Below are positions 3,578 through 55,667 of a stretch of 64,000 nt of DNA, in pieces. Under the pieces are notes generated by a model. That model had not been told where the DNA came from, did no database searches, and saw nothing but the letters and a program-made list of their open reading frames with translations. The stretch comes from a virus, in the IMG/VR virus record IMGVR_UViG_3300047560_000604, positions 1 through 64,000 of that record. The stretch is one strand, 5' to 3'. How positions within the stretch are numbered: the first letter of the stretch is position 1; each line of letters opens with the position of its first letter. The translations under genes were made by a program, and so were the position numbers.

Positions 3578-3950
3578 TTGCTGTAAACCCCGAAAGGGAA
3601 GAGGCGAAGAGAAAAGTGTTCTGGACGCGGGTTCGACTCCCGCCAGGTCCACCAGTAAGAATATTGTTCGCACCAAATAATAGCGCAAAAAATAGTGGCG
3701 TGGTACTAGTCCGTGGATCACTAGCAATATTCTTACTAATGGGCCTGTCATGGTTTCGACAGGGCAAAGAGTAACAGAGTGGACAGCAGGGCAATGTGAA
3801 AGCCCTTAGGATTGGGGGTAACAATACAGTAATGTCATGTCAATATGATATCAGTATTTCCCGGTCGTAGAAGCAAAAAACGTAAATGCAAACGACAGCG
3901 CATATTCTCTAGCCGCTTGAGGCAGAGGTGCAGTAGGACTTACTGTATAA
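3578..3950 (+). ncRNA. ssrA: Circularly permuted (two-piece) tmRNA
   Basis: T-arm GCGGG-TTCGACT-CCCGC and CAGGTCC-A-CCA (3644-3654) lie upstream of the 5' strand GGGCCTG (3741-3747), giving a G3.U70 pair; tag ORF 3888-3920 ANDSAYSLAA*; outer ends approximate. Confidence 0.93.
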
Positions 3951-5230: not shown

Positions 5231-5701
5231 ATGTCAGTTACAATTAAGAACTTAGAAGCAGCTTTCGCCGGTGAGAGCCAAGCGTTCACAAAGTATATGT
5301 ACTTTGCTAAAATGGCTCGTCAGCAAGGCTTTGAAGACGTTGCTAAACACTTTGAACATACTGCAAGCCAAGAACTTCTTCATGCTCATGGGCATTTAGA
5401 GTTGTTAGTAGGTAAGCCAGATGTTAAGCATTGTTTAGAAATGGCTATTGAAGGTGAAACATACGAGTTCACTACAATGTACCCGGAGTTTGAAACAGTC
5501 GCTATCGCTGAAGGCAATCTAGAGGCTGCGATAGAAGCACGCTATCAGATTGAAGAATCAAAAGAACACGCAGACGAATTCAAACAAGTTTTGAAGAAAG
5601 CAGAAAAGCGTTTCGCCGCTCTTGCTAAAGTTGAGAAGCGTCACGCCGAGGCATACCAAGAAGTTTGGGAAGCTGTTAACACAAGTCAAGGAGCAAAATA
5701 A
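5231..5701 (+). CDS. rbr: Rubrerythrin
   Basis: NLEAAFAGESQA..KY..FA..A..EG..A..F..TA..E..HA and E..H diiron motifs. Confidence 0.92.
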   Translation: MSVTIKNLEAAFAGESQAFTKYMYFAKMARQQGFEDVAKHFEHTASQELLHAHGHLELLVGKPDVKHCLEMAIEGETYEFTTMYPEFETVAIAEGNLEAAIEARYQIEESKEHADEFKQVLKKAEKRFAALAKVEKRHAEAYQEVWEAVNTSQGAK

Positions 5702-5829
5702 TGGAACACGTATGCGTAGTATGCGGTCATGTACATGACGAAGCCACTGAAGGTAAATGGGAAGATTTGCCAGATACATTCACTTGCCCTGAGTGTGGTG
5801 TCGGTAAAGAAGATTACGAGACAATCTAA
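5701..5829 (+). CDS. rub: Rubredoxin (42 aa, not in ORF track)
   Basis: MEHVCVVCGHVHDEATEGKWEDLPDTFTCPECGVGKEDYETI; TAATG overlap with rbr; GGAG SD. Confidence 0.92.
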   Translation: MEHVCVVCGHVHDEATEGKWEDLPDTFTCPECGVGKEDYETI

Positions 5830-6221
5830 TGGCAAACGTAGCAGAGTATTTTGAAAAGAATCGTTATCACGGCTCCTATGATTTGGGAGAACGTGTGTTC
5901 GGTTATTACGACAAGATTCCCTTCATCGGCTCTGTTGGTAACGACCGTGTTGTCAGTGAACTAATTGGTCCTGAAATCACGGTCTTACTTGACTTGCCCA
6001 TTATGATTGATGGACAAGTAAAAAATGTTATAATTGTAAAACACAAAGACATTAAATCTTTGTTGAGAGATTATGATGCGTCGGAGGCTCGGATGGTCAG
6101 AGCAACCGATTCTAAACCGGTAGGAAGTGGGTTCGATTCCCATCCGACGCACCAAGAACAACCAAAGTCTAATAGTAAAACACTATTAGAGAATTTGAAG
6201 AAACTAAAAGGTAAAAAATAA
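5829..6221 (+). CDS. Hypothetical protein whose 3' part reads through a tRNA
   Basis: Coupled by TAATG overlaps at both ends; codons about 84-109 coincide with the tRNA. Confidence 0.7.
   Translation: MANVAEYFEKNRYHGSYDLGERVFGYYDKIPFIGSVGNDRVVSELIGPEITVLLDLPIMIDGQVKNVIIVKHKDIKSLLRDYDASEARMVRATDSKPVGSGFDSHPTHQEQPKSNSKTLLENLKKLKGKK
6078..6154 (+). tRNA. tRNA with CUA anticodon (amber-suppressor type), CCA encoded
   Basis: GCGTCGG/CCGACGC acceptor, GCTC/GAGC D-stem, ACCG(A)-TTCTAAA-(C)CGGT anticodon arm, GTGGG-TTCGATT-CCCAT T-arm, ACCA; atypical A8, G14 and A31.C39. Confidence 0.8.
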
Positions 6222-6463
6222 TGGACATGGATAACGCAGCAGTGTTCTTAGCTGGTACAATCTTGTACGCATTGGGTATTCTAATCATCCTATCAGCTAC
6301 GATTATTGCGAATAACATCATTCATAAATTTTGGAAAAGTTTCGGTTGGACATTCATGTCTTGGGTGCATCAAGAACCCGCGAGATTTATGACTCCAGAA
6401 GAAGAAGCTAAAGTTGCACCCACACTTGATCCAGTTAGTGGCGCCACACATAAAACAAAATGA
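6221..6463 (+). CDS. Small membrane protein
   Basis: N-terminal TM segment AVFLAGTILYALGILIILSATIIA. Confidence 0.7.
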   Translation: MDMDNAAVFLAGTILYALGILIILSATIIANNIIHKFWKSFGWTFMSWVHQEPARFMTPEEEAKVAPTLDPVSGATHKTK

Positions 6464-6768
6464 TTGAAAAGATTTGGTATCTCCCGGCACCGTATTCAGA
6501 AGATGACTGTGTATGGATCAACAGTTCAGGATTATTGTACGAAGTATTAAGTCCTGATAAGTGGGGTGACACTGACAGTGGATGGTGTGACTATGCTACT
6601 GGTCAAGAGGTACTAACAAATCTACACGAAGTTTATTTAAGAACCACAGATGAAAAAGGTGAGATGTGGTTGAAACTTAAATATATAGATAGAGTGAAAT
6701 TACAAAGGGTAATGAATCACAATATGTCAGAAGTATTAAGGAGAAAACAAAATGACACAATAGATTGA
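6460..6768 (+). CDS. Hypothetical protein, possible dispersed LRW-family member
   Basis: ATGA overlap; TDEKGEMWLKLKY resembles the array motif. Confidence 0.65.
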   Translation: MIEKIWYLPAPYSEDDCVWINSSGLLYEVLSPDKWGDTDSGWCDYATGQEVLTNLHEVYLRTTDEKGEMWLKLKYIDRVKLQRVMNHNMSEVLRRKQNDTID

Positions 6769-7327
6769 ATTTGCATGTAAAGAGGTAGTCTTCCACTTTA
6801 ACAAAGCACACTTACAAGACGAGACCATTCCCATGTGGGTCTTAAAATTTCATGGCGAAACGTACTATGTCAATCATGTAGATGCAAAGCTACCATGGAG
6901 TACTAAAGAAACTCCCGACAACCCAAGTACAAAAGGTTCATTAAAGTTCAAAAATGCGTTAGTAACCATCAACGAACAGAACGAAGCAACCTTGACAGAA
7001 TTAACAATCTTTGATAAAATACGTTTACGCAATCAGAAGTTGGGTATTACACGTATTATGTTCACACCTGGTTCTGAAATACACGAAGCATTAAAGAGAA
7101 ACGAATTCAAACACTCACCATTCAAAACTATCTCAGCACCTTGTACTACAACATACATTATCTGTGATATGTTGAAGAAAGAAGAGGTCACGTTCGCTAC
7201 TTTGAAGTATGACACGTTTAGGATTGTAAAAGAAAATGAGTATTACTACAAACACTATGACGAAACGAAAGACGACAGAATCCGTGCAGACTACTCGGAT
7301 CCGGACACCCCGTATGAGTACAGTTAA
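6752..7327 (+). CDS. Hypothetical protein with in-frame TAG at codon 4 (ORF track starts it at 6833)
   Basis: AAGGAG-8nt-ATG ACA CAA TAG ATT GAA TTT..., in frame with MWVLKFHGE. Confidence 0.7.
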
Positions 7328-7527: not shown

Positions 7528-8073
7528 ATGCGTATTCAAGAAATCACCGAATCAAAAGAACAAGCATTACAATATGCTACACAAGCACATCAGGGACAAA
7601 CCCGTGATGGTGGCGCTCCCTATATCAGTCATCCTGTTAGAGTTGCTAATATAATTAAACAATATAAGCAAAGTCACAACATTGACGCATTGATTCAGGC
7701 TGCTTACTTGCACGATACGATTGAAGATACAGATACTACCCACGAAGCATTACATGACCTGTTTGGTGGGTTAGTTGCTAGTCTAGTTTTAGAACTTACA
7801 AGCGATTTAGCACAAATCAAGAAAGTAGGAAAGAAAGACTATCTTGCTAAAAAGATGGCTCACGATATGAGTTCATGGGGTCTTGTTATCAAACTAGCTG
7901 ATAGACTAGACAACGTGAAGGATATTACTACTGCCAAGACTCCTGAATGGAGAGCAAAATACAAAGAGGAGACAGAACATATCATGGACTACTTGGAACA
8001 GAATAGAGTATTGAGTGGTACACATAAGAAACTGATTGAGTTGATTAGAAATAAGATTAACGAGGTTCATTAA
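7528..8073 (+). CDS. RelA/SpoT-type HD domain (p)ppGpp hydrolase (small alarmone hydrolase)
   Basis: A..AHQGQTR..G.PYISHP..VA, AAYLHDTIEDT, VIKLADRLDN. Confidence 0.88.
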   Translation: MRIQEITESKEQALQYATQAHQGQTRDGGAPYISHPVRVANIIKQYKQSHNIDALIQAAYLHDTIEDTDTTHEALHDLFGGLVASLVLELTSDLAQIKKVGKKDYLAKKMAHDMSSWGLVIKLADRLDNVKDITTAKTPEWRAKYKEETEHIMDYLEQNRVLSGTHKKLIELIRNKINEVH

Positions 8074-9937: not shown

Positions 9938-11288
9938 AAACGTCAACTATTAAATCATATCCAACTTCTTTAATAGTTAATTTGAAGTTATGCTTTTCGG
10001 CTAAGTCTTCAAACACTTCTTTAGTGAATCCGCATTTGTGAACCATGAAGTCACTGCTATGACGATGCGTATGATAACGTGAACCATACAACATATCCAT
10101 TGCACTTATGGGTCCACCTGCACTATCATACACTGTATCAAGTATCTTTCCGCTAGCTAATCTGATTGCCACAGTTTTCATGTTAGGTGTAATGAATCTA
10201 ACAAAGCCATCATCTTTAACCACACGTAATAGTTCTTTGATTACAGTAGGAACTTTGAAATAGTGAATGTGTTCAATCATGTGACTTGAGTATGCAACAT
10301 CAGCAAACTTATCAGGTATGTGACTGATATTATAAATGTCAGCAAGAATGTCAGGATTGTGCATCTTGTCAATATCTAATGAAATCTCACGATACTCAGT
10401 TAAGTCTTCGGTGTAAAGTTGCTCAGGGATTTTACTGCCACCAAAGCCTACGTTCAAAATAGTTTTGTCAGTAGTAGGAGTTAACACAGTGTCTCGGTCA
10501 TACCTATCCCACCATTCACGCCAATTGATTTGGTCATCTTCCTCAGTATCATATTGCATGTGTAGTGCAAGACTTGGGATAGGAACAAATAGATAATACC
10601 CTCGTTGCTGCCAAAGTTTATTGATAGTATTGTCTTCCATCTTACTATCAACCTGATGTTTGCCCATTGCTTCAAATACGTCCCAGTTATCAGTGATAAC
10701 TTTATGGTGTGTCATAAAGCAACTAGCAGTTGCATTCTGTGTACGCCAGTGACGTTTGCGATTACGAATCATGTGACTTTGCACAACAGTGTTTTGTGGG
10801 ATATAACGATATGGATCATCAAATGGGTAGATAGCAGTGAAGTTGCCAATCTTTTGACTTGTATCCATTAGTGTAAGAATCATATCATAGATAGCAGTAG
10901 TATCATATAGGTAGTCATCCTGTGCGTAGTACACGATTTCTTTACCATAGTCTCTGCCGTGTTCGTAGCATTTAAGAATGCTTGGCATGATACCATAAGT
11001 GTCTAGAGCATTGAATTGTGTTTTGAATGTAGCAATGTTAAGGTTGTTCTTTAACTCGTGTACTGCCGATTCATCACTGTGGTCATCGTAAATGACTAAT
11101 TCAAAATCACTATCTAAGAACAGTTCTTTTGCATAGTTCATGGACTCAACTAAACTGCGAGTGCAACGGCGTTGTATCTCACTTTTGGGCGCATTGGCAA
11201 ATCTTTTATTGTCGTTCATTTTTAAGTAGTGCTGACTGTCCCCTTTACTATGGGTTTGTAGCACTACTAATACATGTAGTTTATTCAT
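9927..11288 (-). CDS. Glycosyltransferase-like domain fused to class I SAM methyltransferase
   Basis: IYDDHS and YAQDDYL in the N-terminal part; ILNVGFGG..DID..PDILADI..YSSHMIEH in the C-terminal part. Confidence 0.75.
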   Translation of the reverse strand: MNKLHVLVVLQTHSKGDSQHYLKMNDNKRFANAPKSEIQRRCTRSLVESMNYAKELFLDSDFELVIYDDHSDESAVHELKNNLNIATFKTQFNALDTYGIMPSILKCYEHGRDYGKEIVYYAQDDYLYDTTAIYDMILTLMDTSQKIGNFTAIYPFDDPYRYIPQNTVVQSHMIRNRKRHWRTQNATASCFMTHHKVITDNWDVFEAMGKHQVDSKMEDNTINKLWQQRGYYLFVPIPSLALHMQYDTEEDDQINWREWWDRYDRDTVLTPTTDKTILNVGFGGSKIPEQLYTEDLTEYREISLDIDKMHNPDILADIYNISHIPDKFADVAYSSHMIEHIHYFKVPTVIKELLRVVKDDGFVRFITPNMKTVAIRLASGKILDTVYDSAGGPISAMDMLYGSRYHTHRHSSDFMVHKCGFTKEVFEDLAEKHNFKLTIKEVGYDLIVDVSKT

Positions 11289-15078: not shown

Positions 15079-15494
15079 ATGGAAATCAAAATTGTTTCTC
15101 GTTCTAAACGGCGCAAAATTACTATTGACTTGACGACCAAATTCTTATGCAAAGAGTTGAAGTTGGAACGTAGTAAATTTTTGTTAACTATCTACACTAT
15201 GTCAGGATTGCGTAAGCATCAGGGTTATAATGGGGTAGTAGCACAAGTCGGTGAACGTGAAATGACAATGATGGTTGACAGTCGTTTGGGTGAAGGAGAC
15301 CTCATACAATGCGTTGCACATGAAATGGTTCACGTGAAACAAATTGCAAAAGGTCAACTTACTACGTAGTCTACCATGAGCGTCCTTGGGAACAAGAGGC
15401 TTTTAGTCGTGAACGTTTGCTTGCCGCACGTGCCCTTGCTTTTGCTGAAAAAGAAATGGGCAAGATGGTTAAAAAACTTGTAAAAAATGTTTGA
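15079..15494 (+). pseudogene. Zincin-like (HExxH) protein disrupted near 15366
   Basis: AHEMVHVKQ then TAG at 15367; the -1 frame continues VYHERPWEQEAFSRERLLA..NV*. Confidence 0.7.
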
Positions 15495-54443: not shown

Positions 54444-54794
54444 TTTGCGTTTACTCTTACGCTTATTGAGTTCTAACATAGAGCATATGGGCCCATGCAT
54501 GATTGTTAGACTCTTGTTATTGAATGTTCTAAGATAGGGTTTGAACACTACCCAATCTTCTTTTAAGAACATATTGATGGGAACTAAGCGATTTGATTCC
54601 CACCACCACGTGTCTCCCAATTCTAGGAACTTTTCTCTAAGTTCAGGGTGTTGGATTGACCCGTAGTCGTATATAGTGGTGACAATATCATCCCTGTTCT
54701 GCACGATTCCCACATAGTCTTGACCAGCATAGGAGCATACAGTAATAAAGGGATGATTCTCGGTCAATTTTTTGAAGAATTCGTTGTGAAACAT
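54414..54794 (-). CDS. Hypothetical protein
   Basis: GTG start after minus-strand TAAATA (54813-54818); convergent overlap. Confidence 0.75.
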   Translation of the reverse strand: MFHNEFFKKLTENHPFITVCSYAGQDYVGIVQNRDDIVTTIYDYGSIQHPELREKFLELGDTWWWESNRLVPINMFLKEDWVVFKPYLRTFNNKSLTIMHGPICSMLELNKRKSKRKSITLVKRMP

Positions 54795-54875
54795 TATAAT
54801 ATATTACGGATATATTTATCATTGGGCAAAACCCAATATATTATTTGTCATAAATAGATTATAAGGAGCCAATCT

Positions 54876-55667
54876 GTGTACTCAACAAACGTTTATCTAA
54901 TAACTGGAAGAAACTATCTTCTAACTCAAAAGCATACGGTTGTGGTTTACAGTGGGAACTCGACCAGGAGGTATAGTCTAGTGTACGCAAAGAATCTAAA
55001 ATTACATAAGGGCGTTGAAAATCGCATTCAATTCCAATTTTTAAACCAGGAACAGAAACCAGTGGATATCACTGGAAAGACCTTTACTTTTAGACTTATC
55101 AGCTACGACGGCACAGAAGTATTGTTACAAGTTCCGTTAGTTACAACACTAGCATTGACTGGTATTGCAGAGTTGAGAACTAAAGCAGGTCAGTTGGAAG
55201 GAATCGATCCTCAGAACGCATCTTATAGTTTGGAAGTTATTGACCCAGATGGTGATGCATCCGAGTATACCGGGCATCCTCATTATCCTGTGTTCACTAA
55301 TAGTGATGCAGGTGGTCGTGGTTTATGTCAAGTAGTATCAAGTATCATGCCAGACTTTGTTTCGGCAACTAACGTTACCATTCCTAGTCATTCTATTCCA
55401 AACTCAAATACGGTTACTTATACCAGCAGTGTACTAACATCAAATGATACGGGTGTGACTACTATACAAACATTCTATGACAACTATAGCGGTACTGCTA
55501 CTATTCAAGGGTCAACGTTGAATGATACAGATTGGTATGATATTAGCACATCAACATATCTGGAAACCACCGCAAGTGATGGATACACTGTCACTGGGTT
55601 TCACCCATATCTGAGACTAAGTTTCACTAGTACTCAGGGCAATGTCACTCAAATTTTAGCCAGATAA
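54876..55667 (+). CDS. Virion structural protein (BppU-like N-terminus)
   Basis: Late promoter at 54851; AAGGAG; L.KGVENRIQFQFLNQEQKPVDITG. Confidence 0.65.
   Translation: MYSTNVYLITGRNYLLTQKHTVVVYSGNSTRRYSLVYAKNLKLHKGVENRIQFQFLNQEQKPVDITGKTFTFRLISYDGTEVLLQVPLVTTLALTGIAELRTKAGQLEGIDPQNASYSLEVIDPDGDASEYTGHPHYPVFTNSDAGGRGLCQVVSSIMPDFVSATNVTIPSHSIPNSNTVTYTSSVLTSNDTGVTTIQTFYDNYSGTATIQGSTLNDTDWYDISTSTYLETTASDGYTVTGFHPYLRLSFTSTQGNVTQILAR

Follow-up and report, generated by a model that had tools for sequence, protein, structure and literature searches.

A conserved amber codon at the start of a phage gene and a linked suppressor tRNA predicted to decode it

The A1 protein of phage Q-beta is made by programmed readthrough at UGA and the gag-pol product of murine leukemia virus (MuLV) by readthrough at UAG, and prfB, the gene of release factor 2 (RF2), carries an in-frame UGA at codon 26 and is autoregulated by a +1 frameshift. 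Programmed readthrough in viruses is reviewed in PMC13517186. TAG-recoded phages (crAss-like, Lak and others) carry suppressor transfer RNAs (tRNAs) and read TAG as glutamine under genetic code 15 (bioRxiv 10.1101/2021.08.26.457843; PMC7886860), and the suppressor tRNAs of their standard-code relatives were taken as possible precursors of recoding, without a target (bioRxiv 10.1101/2021.08.26.457843). Synthetic feed-forward circuits based on suppressor tRNAs have been built in E. coli ('leak dampener', PMC7969014; also PMC13276491). In the literature we found no natural single-gene cassette of this kind, just genome-wide recoding, engineered suppressor circuits and readthrough in eukaryotic viruses. 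Here we analyzed the first 64 kb (positions 1 to 64,000; the window) of IMGVR_UViG_3300047560_000604, the IMG/VR virus record of a large uncultured phage. The record is 133,466 bp long with a CheckV completeness of 38%; the G+C content of the window is ~40% throughout. A gene at 6752-7327 of this window is very probably amber-gated, that is, its protein would be made only when a phage tRNA with the anticodon CUA, tRNA(CUA), overrides an in-frame UAG. The evidence for gating is comparative throughout, and the conservation of the TAG, the coding constraint around it, an apparent structural need for the residues that follow it, a functional-looking tRNA and a near-obligate linkage of tRNA and gene all point to it.

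The tRNA and the parts of the gated gene are arranged in the window as follows.

6078-6154, plus strand: tRNA with the anticodon CUA (ARAGORN; Rfam RF00005, 56.2 bits against a gathering score of 29).
6738-6743, plus strand: Shine-Dalgarno (SD) sequence AAGGAG, with an 8-nt spacer to the ATG at 6752 (from the sequence).
6752-6760, plus strand: leader of three codons, ATG ACA CAA (Met-Thr-Gln; from the sequence).
6761-6763, plus strand: in-frame TAG (amber) as codon 4, with A as the next base (TAG-ATT-GAA; from the sequence).
6764-7006, plus strand: N-terminal 'FHFNK' domain, residues 5-85, small and all-beta (AlphaFold2 and conservation).
7007-7327, plus strand: C-domain (residues 86-174, alpha/beta, ferredoxin-like), acidic disordered tail and stop codon (AlphaFold2).

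The stop codon of the gene is TAA (7325-7327). From the leader ATG it is 81 nt, in the same frame, to the ATG at 6833 (Met28), which opens a 164-aa open reading frame (ORF) that also ends at 7327, and the full product with the TAG decoded would be 191 aa. The nearest thing to an SD before ATG 6833 is a weak GAG, which is no real SD. A first-pass annotation of this DNA had described a strong SD, 8 nt before ATG-ACA-CAA-TAG in frame with the 164-aa ORF, no comparable SD at ATG 6833, a 191-aa readthrough product and a CUA tRNA about 600 nt upstream. All of this was borne out on reading the sequence, and the tRNA, found by both ARAGORN and Rfam, ends 598 nt before ATG 6752 on the same strand.

Four scans of IMG/VR gave 295 loci with the motif, which represent 122 distinct gene regions; codon-level counts use 108-109 distinct sequences. 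TAG was present at the homologous site in 117 of the 122 regions, and neither TAA, TGA nor a sense codon was ever found there among them. These gated relatives were independently assembled and are 50-95% identical, and the distance from the TAG to the invariant FHFNK motif is 10-15 codons in all 117. In 107 of the 109 distinct relatives, an SD-like GGAG or AGGA precedes the leader ATG by 4-16 nt. The leaders vary freely in sequence (MA, MS, MK, MQ, MTQ, MTQQ, MSQS and others) and in length (1-9 codons), and the position of the TAG ranges from codon 2 to codon 10; among the 109 relatives it is at codon 3 in 78, at codon 4 in 11 and at codon 5 in 14. Entropy is zero at all three bases of the TAG and 0.7-2.0 bits at the preceding 15 bases. 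The arrangement is far beyond chance: the TAG is invariant in the 108-109 sequences while the adjoining leader positions vary.

The sequence after the TAG is also constrained. The next base is always a purine (A in 104 of 109 relatives, G in 5), and the next two codons are ATT (94 of 108) and then GAA (102 of 108). The other codons found directly after the TAG are ATC (6), GTA (5), ATA (2) and ACT (1), and AAC in a Rhizobium phage described below. The third-position entropy of these two codons is 0.65 and 0.32 bits, compared to 1.48 and 0.88 bits for the same amino acids further downstream. A purine after UAG, especially A, favors suppression in E. coli, and the purine together with the synonymous constraint would fit a selected suppression context.

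Homologs in cultured phages were searched with tblastn, and the matches begin upstream of Met28; megablast of the region against cultured phages gave no match. In the distant Rhizobium phage RHph_I1_18, the homolog opens with an SD and an ATG, and four sense codons separate this ATG from a TAG at codon 6, behind which the same motif is found; a tRNA(CUA) (10,911-10,988) begins 12 nt past its stop codon. This homolog (MN988519.1, complement 10,998-11,248, corresponding to L001:2507-2757) is absent from the GenBank annotation, presumably due to the TAG at codon 6. The first-pass annotation had proposed that reads with CAG or AAG would speak against gating; the 117 regions and RHph_I1_18 have TAG, never a sense codon.

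The codons between the TAG and Met28 are under selection at the protein level. Over the 26 codons after the TAG, the entropy is 0.37 bits at the first, 0.24 at the second and 1.01 at the third codon position, as is characteristic of a reading frame that is translated and constrained, and 23 of these codons precede Met28, the start chosen by gene callers. Alignment of the homologs showed a conserved N-terminus, with the 23 residues before Met28 conserved and no start at MWVLK, the start that the earlier annotation had named as its counter-case. The invariant residues of the family alignment are V13-F-H-F-N-K18, L21, D23, T25 and P27, and the Met-Trp is invariant within a PMW motif, even in fusion proteins that have it well in the interior of the chain. 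In the AlphaFold2 models, residues 5-16 form the first long strand of the N-domain, directly after the TAG. The N-domain alone was predicted from a 61-sequence alignment with a predicted local distance difference test score (pLDDT) of 95.2 and a predicted template modeling score (pTM) of 0.83; the pLDDT of the full protein is 80.8, with values below 50 beyond residue 175.

In the window tRNA, ARAGORN places the cta anticodon at position 35 in a 7-nt loop, UU-CUA-AA (U32-U33-C-U-A-A37-A38). The acceptor stem begins with the pairs G1-C72, C2-G71 and G3-C70, the discriminator base is A73, CCA is encoded, the variable loop is short, and an A31.C39 mismatch is present. The ARAGORN label 'tRNA-Pyl' is its name for any CUA anticodon and does not by itself point to pyrrolysine; no search aimed at pyl genes was made. 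An alignment of 75 distinct tRNA(CUA) genes from the related loci showed that they keep G1-C72, C2-G71, G3-C70, A73, the encoded CCA and the loop YU-CUA-AA. In their stems, 92.4% of the alignment cells are paired and compensatory double changes occur at 19 of 21 pairs; the covariation is 0.582, compared to 0.210 in shuffled alignments, none of 500 of which reached it, and 0.112 or less with slid partners. Pair 31/39 (window 6108 and 6116; alignment columns 32 and 40) is non-standard in 53 of the 75 genes, mostly as C31.A39, and this systematic mismatch beside the loop may tune the strength of the suppressor. A73 and a strong 1-72 pair disfavor recognition by glutaminyl-tRNA synthetase (GlnRS); as a guess, these features argue against good GlnRS recognition of the phage tRNA and are compatible with lysine.

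The tRNA and the gated gene are closely linked. Among the gated regions whose upstream flank is 2.5 kb or longer, ARAGORN found tRNA(CUA) in 86, in every case on the strand of the gene. Over all gated regions it found 90 same-strand tRNA(CUA) genes, 85 of them upstream (median distance ~305 nt, 24 within 150 nt) and 5 just downstream of the gated gene, and CUA is by far the commonest tRNA anticodon at these loci (94, versus 13 or fewer for any other). A pattern search combined with a covariance model (R1) added clear CUA tRNAs in 13 loci that ARAGORN had missed, and a whole-contig search added five further ones at 3.3-8.5 kb. In the final count, 103 (97%) of the 106 gated regions that had sufficient flank contained a same-strand tRNA(CUA), which agrees with the co-occurrence that the first-pass annotation had predicted. 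The three gated regions without it are fragments of 11-23 kb that are 3-4% complete, and a gate without tRNA(CUA) was seen in no complete genome. Homologs of the ORFs that flank the cassette in the window occur in 1 to 48 of the 122 related loci, often at other positions. Because these neighbors are shuffled while the tRNA-gene pair stays together, the two behave as one two-part cassette in a very plastic region, and the earlier description of the pair as a compact switch fits this behavior.

The loci missed by ARAGORN include L143, L145, L148, L164, L172, L188, L195, L233, L296 and L297. Several of the missed tRNA(CUA) genes have deviant T-loops (GGCTCGATACC, GGATCGTTACC and GGTTAGATTCC). Surveys that use standard tRNA finders will undercount phage suppressor tRNAs.

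The number of stop codons of each type in the 133-kb record, from a greedy ORF set, is 104 TAA, 58 TGA and 12 TAG, and coding coverage changes from 0.949 under code 11 to 0.933 with TAG as a sense codon. By these measures the record uses the standard code and appears not to be recoded. No second credible in-frame TAG gene of the same build was found in the 133 kb; the internal-TAG candidates at 15079-15483, 93165-93998, 54720-55667 and 132486-133364 are adjacent same-frame genes or spurious extensions. In five relatives of at least 93% completeness (1.78 Mb in total), we searched the pattern GGAG-N5-11-ATG-NNN-TAG-purine, which detects just codon-3 gates with GGAG. The pattern occurred six times, and a long ORF lay behind two hits alone, both of which were this gene. 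These results would support a single target of the tRNA(CUA). Translation in code 15, which the first-pass annotation had recommended for finding more cases, gave none that were credible in the 133 kb, and the gate did turn up on a second type of gene, PTH2-like, in the related loci L130 and L168 (see below). Members of the PTH2 and RF-1 families were not found in the 133-kb record, which at 38% completeness shows little.

A profile search of 1.84 billion proteins gave 175 relatives that fall into four groups. The first group has many members, which start at the internal Met (profile position 27), as expected if gene callers stop at the TAG. Proteins of the second group have a Met exactly at the TAG position (M-IEL..., M-VEL...), those of the third consist of the N-domain alone, and those of the fourth carry the N-domain at the C-terminus of ~175-aa proteins (Agrobacterium phage Atu_ph07 and Sinorhizobium phage Phosso). 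The residue at the TAG position in ungated relatives is the start Met or, by the starts called in databases, Thr, Asn or Arg; the position is evidently tolerant of different residues. The database proteins P0004 and P0005 ('MAQ...') probably stem from a code-15 gene caller that translated the TAG as Q. On DNA, ungated genes were confirmed in L130, L159, L168 and L186, where they start 10 codons before FHFNK. A quick tree with long branches, which is indicative, put the DNA-checked ungated forms at three or more places among the gated ones. A scan with P0022 found no relatives. In the database protein P0082, the first ~45 residues after Met28 are joined to a SNF2/ResIII helicase fragment, and this protein could be a recombinant or an assembly chimera.

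Several other explanations of the locus were considered. In one of them, ATG ACA CAA TAG is a regulatory minigene and translation restarts at the adjacent ATT, in which case the tRNA is not needed. We regard this as improbable, even though parts of the data agree with it: infC uses an AUU start, very short ORFs with strong SDs are known as regulatory or drop-off elements (as in the lambda bar minigenes), ATT is over-represented after the TAG (94 of 108, versus ATT 50, ATA 23 and ATC 9 at another Ile position), and the start ATG of ungated relatives sits exactly at the TAG site (M-IEL...). However, the ATC, ATA, GTA, ACT and AAC codons that also follow the TAG are poor starts or none, and the variation at this position is mostly synonymous or a conservative Ile/Val exchange, as for an elongation codon. 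Reinitiation also leaves unexplained the exclusive use of TAG, never TAA or TGA, and the tRNA(CUA) linkage in 103 of 106 regions. In another explanation, which is highly improbable, translation starts at ATG 6833 to give the 164-aa protein (MWVLK...) as the true product, and the SD, leader and TAG are an unrelated short upstream ORF or a remnant. It agrees with the ORF given by standard gene callers and with the many database members of the family that begin at that Met, but there is no SD at 6833, and the 23 upstream codons are conserved with an invariant VFHFNK and form the first strand and helix of the N-domain in the AlphaFold2 model. The ungated relatives, moreover, begin 10 codons before FHFNK, and the Met-Trp is internal in the fusion proteins.

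Genome-wide recoding under code 15, with the gated gene as one of many, is likewise very unlikely. In its favor, TAG-recoded phages are characterized by a phage Sup-CTA tRNA (bioRxiv 10.1101/2021.08.26.457843), no stop is rarer here than TAG (12 of 174), and the record is 38% complete; on the other side, coverage falls from 0.949 to 0.933 when TAG is read as sense, the internal TAGs are accounted for by upstream extensions or adjacent same-frame genes, and in the five near-complete relatives no other gene combines the gate pattern with a long ORF behind it. A plain nonsense mutation (which the first-pass annotation had kept as a live option), a pseudogene or a sequencing error, which a single window cannot exclude, has a negligible probability now that the same codon has been found in 117 independently assembled relatives with purifying selection on both sides. 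Since a product from Met28 would lose a core strand and would be without an SD, both the MWVLK start and the nonsense mutation were rejected. Bypassing of the T4 gene 60 type and frameshifting were also rejected, as the frame continues directly behind the TAG with a conserved protein sequence and the codon ahead of the TAG is variable.

Under amber gating, ribosomes would start at ATG 6752 on the strong SD and reach the UAG at codon 4. When host release factor 1 (RF1) acts there, a tripeptide would be released and no protein made; when tRNA(CUA) decodes the UAG, an amino acid would be inserted and the full 191-aa two-domain protein would follow. The output would be set by the activity of the charged suppressor tRNA relative to RF1, and this presumes that the tRNA is expressed, charged and able to read this UAG. 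Because the stop lies in the first codons, failed attempts would be cheap, as no truncated protein arises. The tRNA and the gated gene are probably on the same transcript, and if they are co-transcribed, they would form a coherent feed-forward loop like that of the synthetic 'leak dampener' circuits (PMC7969014). Such an arrangement may serve to delay expression by feed-forward or to filter out leak; instead, or in addition, the UAG may sense the capacity for UAG decoding.

The FHFNK domain appears to be functionally tied to peptidyl-tRNA-hydrolase-like enzymes, because the two are found fused, in shared operons and with the gate on either partner. In the database protein P0066, a PTH2 domain (PF01981; 32 bits, cut-off 23) and the FHFNK domain are naturally fused. 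Phosso and Atu_ph07 each have a PTH2 gene (59-61 bits) two genes further upstream, within a series of genes that overlap by 4 nt. In L130 (3352-3729) and L168 (3625-3999), a PTH2-like gene starts with SD-ATG-NNN-TAG-A, with the TAG at codon 3, and ends just before the ungated FHFNK gene; the scores of these two genes, 15.8 and 19.6 bits, respectively, are below the cut-off, and the match in L168 covers the whole model. In L081, a PTH2-like gene (E 7.5e-20 to P0066) is directly upstream of a gated FHFNK-only gene, and a tRNA(CUA) lies 558 nt downstream. The amber gate thus seems able to sit on either partner, the FHFNK gene or the PTH2-like gene. The window protein itself gave no Pfam hit to PTH2, and hhalign of the family profile against the Phosso PTH2 gave a probability of 0.1%. 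An ORF of another type was seen in L149 (3332-3997): it encodes 219 aa with a NUMOD3 motif (homing-endonuclease-like) and starts with SD-ATG-NNN-TAG-ATT-GAA-TAT (M-x-stop-I-E-Y), and this endonuclease may have been inserted behind, or recombined onto, a gate.

Searches with the window protein and its N-domain gave no usable family in Pfam and PHROG. The family profile gave nothing below an E value of 0.17 against PDB sequences, and Foldseek with both models gave nothing at E ≤ 0.001 against the PDB. With VIA-align, the best match of the N-domain was LEF-3 (Z 4.1), followed by PriB (3.6-3.7) and SSB/RPA (~2.8-2.9); these matches are weak and mostly of the oligonucleotide/oligosaccharide-binding (OB) fold. 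The C-domain matched many unrelated beta-alpha-beta-beta-alpha-beta proteins (ACT/RRM-type) with Z of 5.0-5.7 over 53-87 residues, which is not discriminating. An RNA- or tRNA-related role is suggested, with low confidence, because of the OB-fold and ferredoxin-like matches and the linkage to tRNA and PTH2. Such a protein would most likely act on tRNA or peptidyl-tRNA together with PTH2-type hydrolases, which is the weakest step of our interpretation.

Several observations weigh against the interpretation of the locus as an amber gate with one target and a tRNA-related product. The record is 38% complete, and the single target rests on one restricted pattern. The products of the 12 phage ORFs with TAG as their stop, and of such host genes, would be lengthened by a suppressor as well. 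The window tRNA has a non-standard A8/G14 in addition to the A31.C39 mismatch, which could lower its activity, and it is 68% or less identical to any co-resident phage isoacceptor, which is uninformative on its identity. Three of the four DNA-verified ungated relatives (L159, L168 and L186) keep a nearby upstream tRNA(CUA). In L168 the gated PTH2-like gene that adjoins accounts for this; in L159 and L186, where the tRNA(CUA) is ~160 nt upstream, no gated gene was found within 4 kb, and given these two loci the tRNA(CUA) may have other uses. The fold matches (Z 4-5.7) are too weak to carry a functional claim.

A broader interpretation, possible but doubtful, is that the tRNA(CUA), the FHFNK protein and, in other lineages, the PTH2-like hydrolases make up a self-referential translation module in which the UAG serves as both sensor and lock. 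The targets of the gated proteins would then be the suppressor tRNA, ribosomes paused at UAG or short peptidyl-tRNAs from such pauses. The module would measure and tune its own UAG decoding as a tRNA-based analogue of RF2 autoregulation, and the nearby transfer-messenger RNA (tmRNA) would belong to the same ribosome-rescue toolkit.

Two further features lie around the tRNA in the window.

6007-6034, plus strand: promoter-like site, TTGATG, 16 nt, TG-TATAAT, 44 nt before the tRNA (consensus scan).
6221-6768, plus strand: two small ORFs between the tRNA and the gated gene (ORF list).

The site at 6007-6034 is a weak candidate for a promoter of the tRNA and the downstream genes; the number of promoter-like sites in the region by the consensus scan is not above the shuffled expectation. 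No terminator-like site was found on the plus strand between the tRNA(CUA) and the gated gene. The first intervening ORF (6221-6463) encodes a hydrophobic protein of 80 aa. The second (6460-6768) encodes 102 aa and overlaps the start of the gated gene, its TGA ending 3 nt past the TAG. Pfam gave no family above the cut-off for either of them, and with homologs in just 18 and 4 of the 122 related loci, respectively, they are variable cargo.

A circularly permuted (two-piece) tmRNA with the tag ANDSAYSLAA is located at 3579-3920 on the plus strand of the window, 2.2 kb upstream of the tRNA(CUA). In 18 of the 122 distinct loci a permuted tmRNA is no more than 4 kb away from the gated gene, and therefore the ribosome-rescue RNA and the suppressor cassette often travel together. 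The tags of these tmRNAs end in ...ALAA, mostly as ANDxxFALAA or ANDxxYALAA. Just upstream of the tRNA, at 5231-5829 on the plus strand, are a rubrerythrin (PF02915) and a short rubredoxin-like ORF, auxiliary genes of a kind that is unusual in phages. Downstream of the gated gene, by 200 nt, an HD_4 protein (PF13328, 68 bits, RelA/SpoT-type hydrolase fold) is encoded at 7528-8073 on the plus strand, and a 68-aa ORF that overlaps the stop codon of the gated gene lies between them. The HD_4 gene is ungated and has a homolog in 1 of the 122 related loci.

Many large standard-code phages carry suppressor tRNAs that have no recognized purpose and that are treated in the literature as recoding precursors or tools, and the cassette would give such a tRNA a specific, conserved target. 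If the interpretation is true, the cassette is a natural case of one gene under the control of its own suppressor tRNA, a design known so far from synthetic biology. Standard annotation shortens the gene (164 instead of 191 aa, with the loss of a core strand) or misses it, as in RHph_I1_18. The PTH2 link and the frequent tmRNA neighbor point to an unexplored phage control of termination and ribosome rescue. A cultured phage-host pair, RHph_I1_18 and Rhizobium phaseoli, exists for direct testing.

Compared with known systems, the locus shares several features with each and differs in others. PTH2 (PF01981) is annotated in cluster C mycobacteriophages, and the phage PTH2 hydrolases are fused to the FHFNK domain (P0066) or adjoin it (Phosso, Atu_ph07, L081, L130 and L168); their relation to the window protein is one of association, not homology. 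The prfB gene, by analogy, would share with the gated gene a conserved in-frame stop near the 5' end and a synthesis that depends on its decoding, by which the stop serves as a sensor of termination capacity. However, prfB senses its own product and is decoded by a +1 frameshift, for which it has a slippery codon and an internal SD, whereas in the gated gene the ORF is in the frame of the ATG, the codon before the TAG is variable, and a dedicated tRNA would do the decoding. In programmed viral readthrough, too, a protein that is needed arises by decoding of a stop as sense, and the nucleotides that follow the stop have an influence, but host near-cognate tRNAs act at a low rate to give a C-terminal extension of an otherwise functional protein. 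In the gated gene the stop stands ahead of the entire protein, and the virus would supply a cognate tRNA of its own. The code-15 phages likewise have a phage tRNA(CUA), a host presumed to use the standard code, in-frame TAG that is read through, and a proposed role in the timing or regulation of expression; they contain tens to hundreds of recoded genes, mostly late structural and lysis genes, and their coding density depends on the code. The phage studied here, in contrast, uses the standard code and has one gated gene, with the TAG in its first codons and the tRNA physically linked to it. In the synthetic circuits of E. coli, a suppressor tRNA and an amber target are co-expressed and the output needs both, which lowers the leak and sharpens the response. 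Those circuits are engineered, and the cassette, with its probable co-transcription, would be their natural counterpart.

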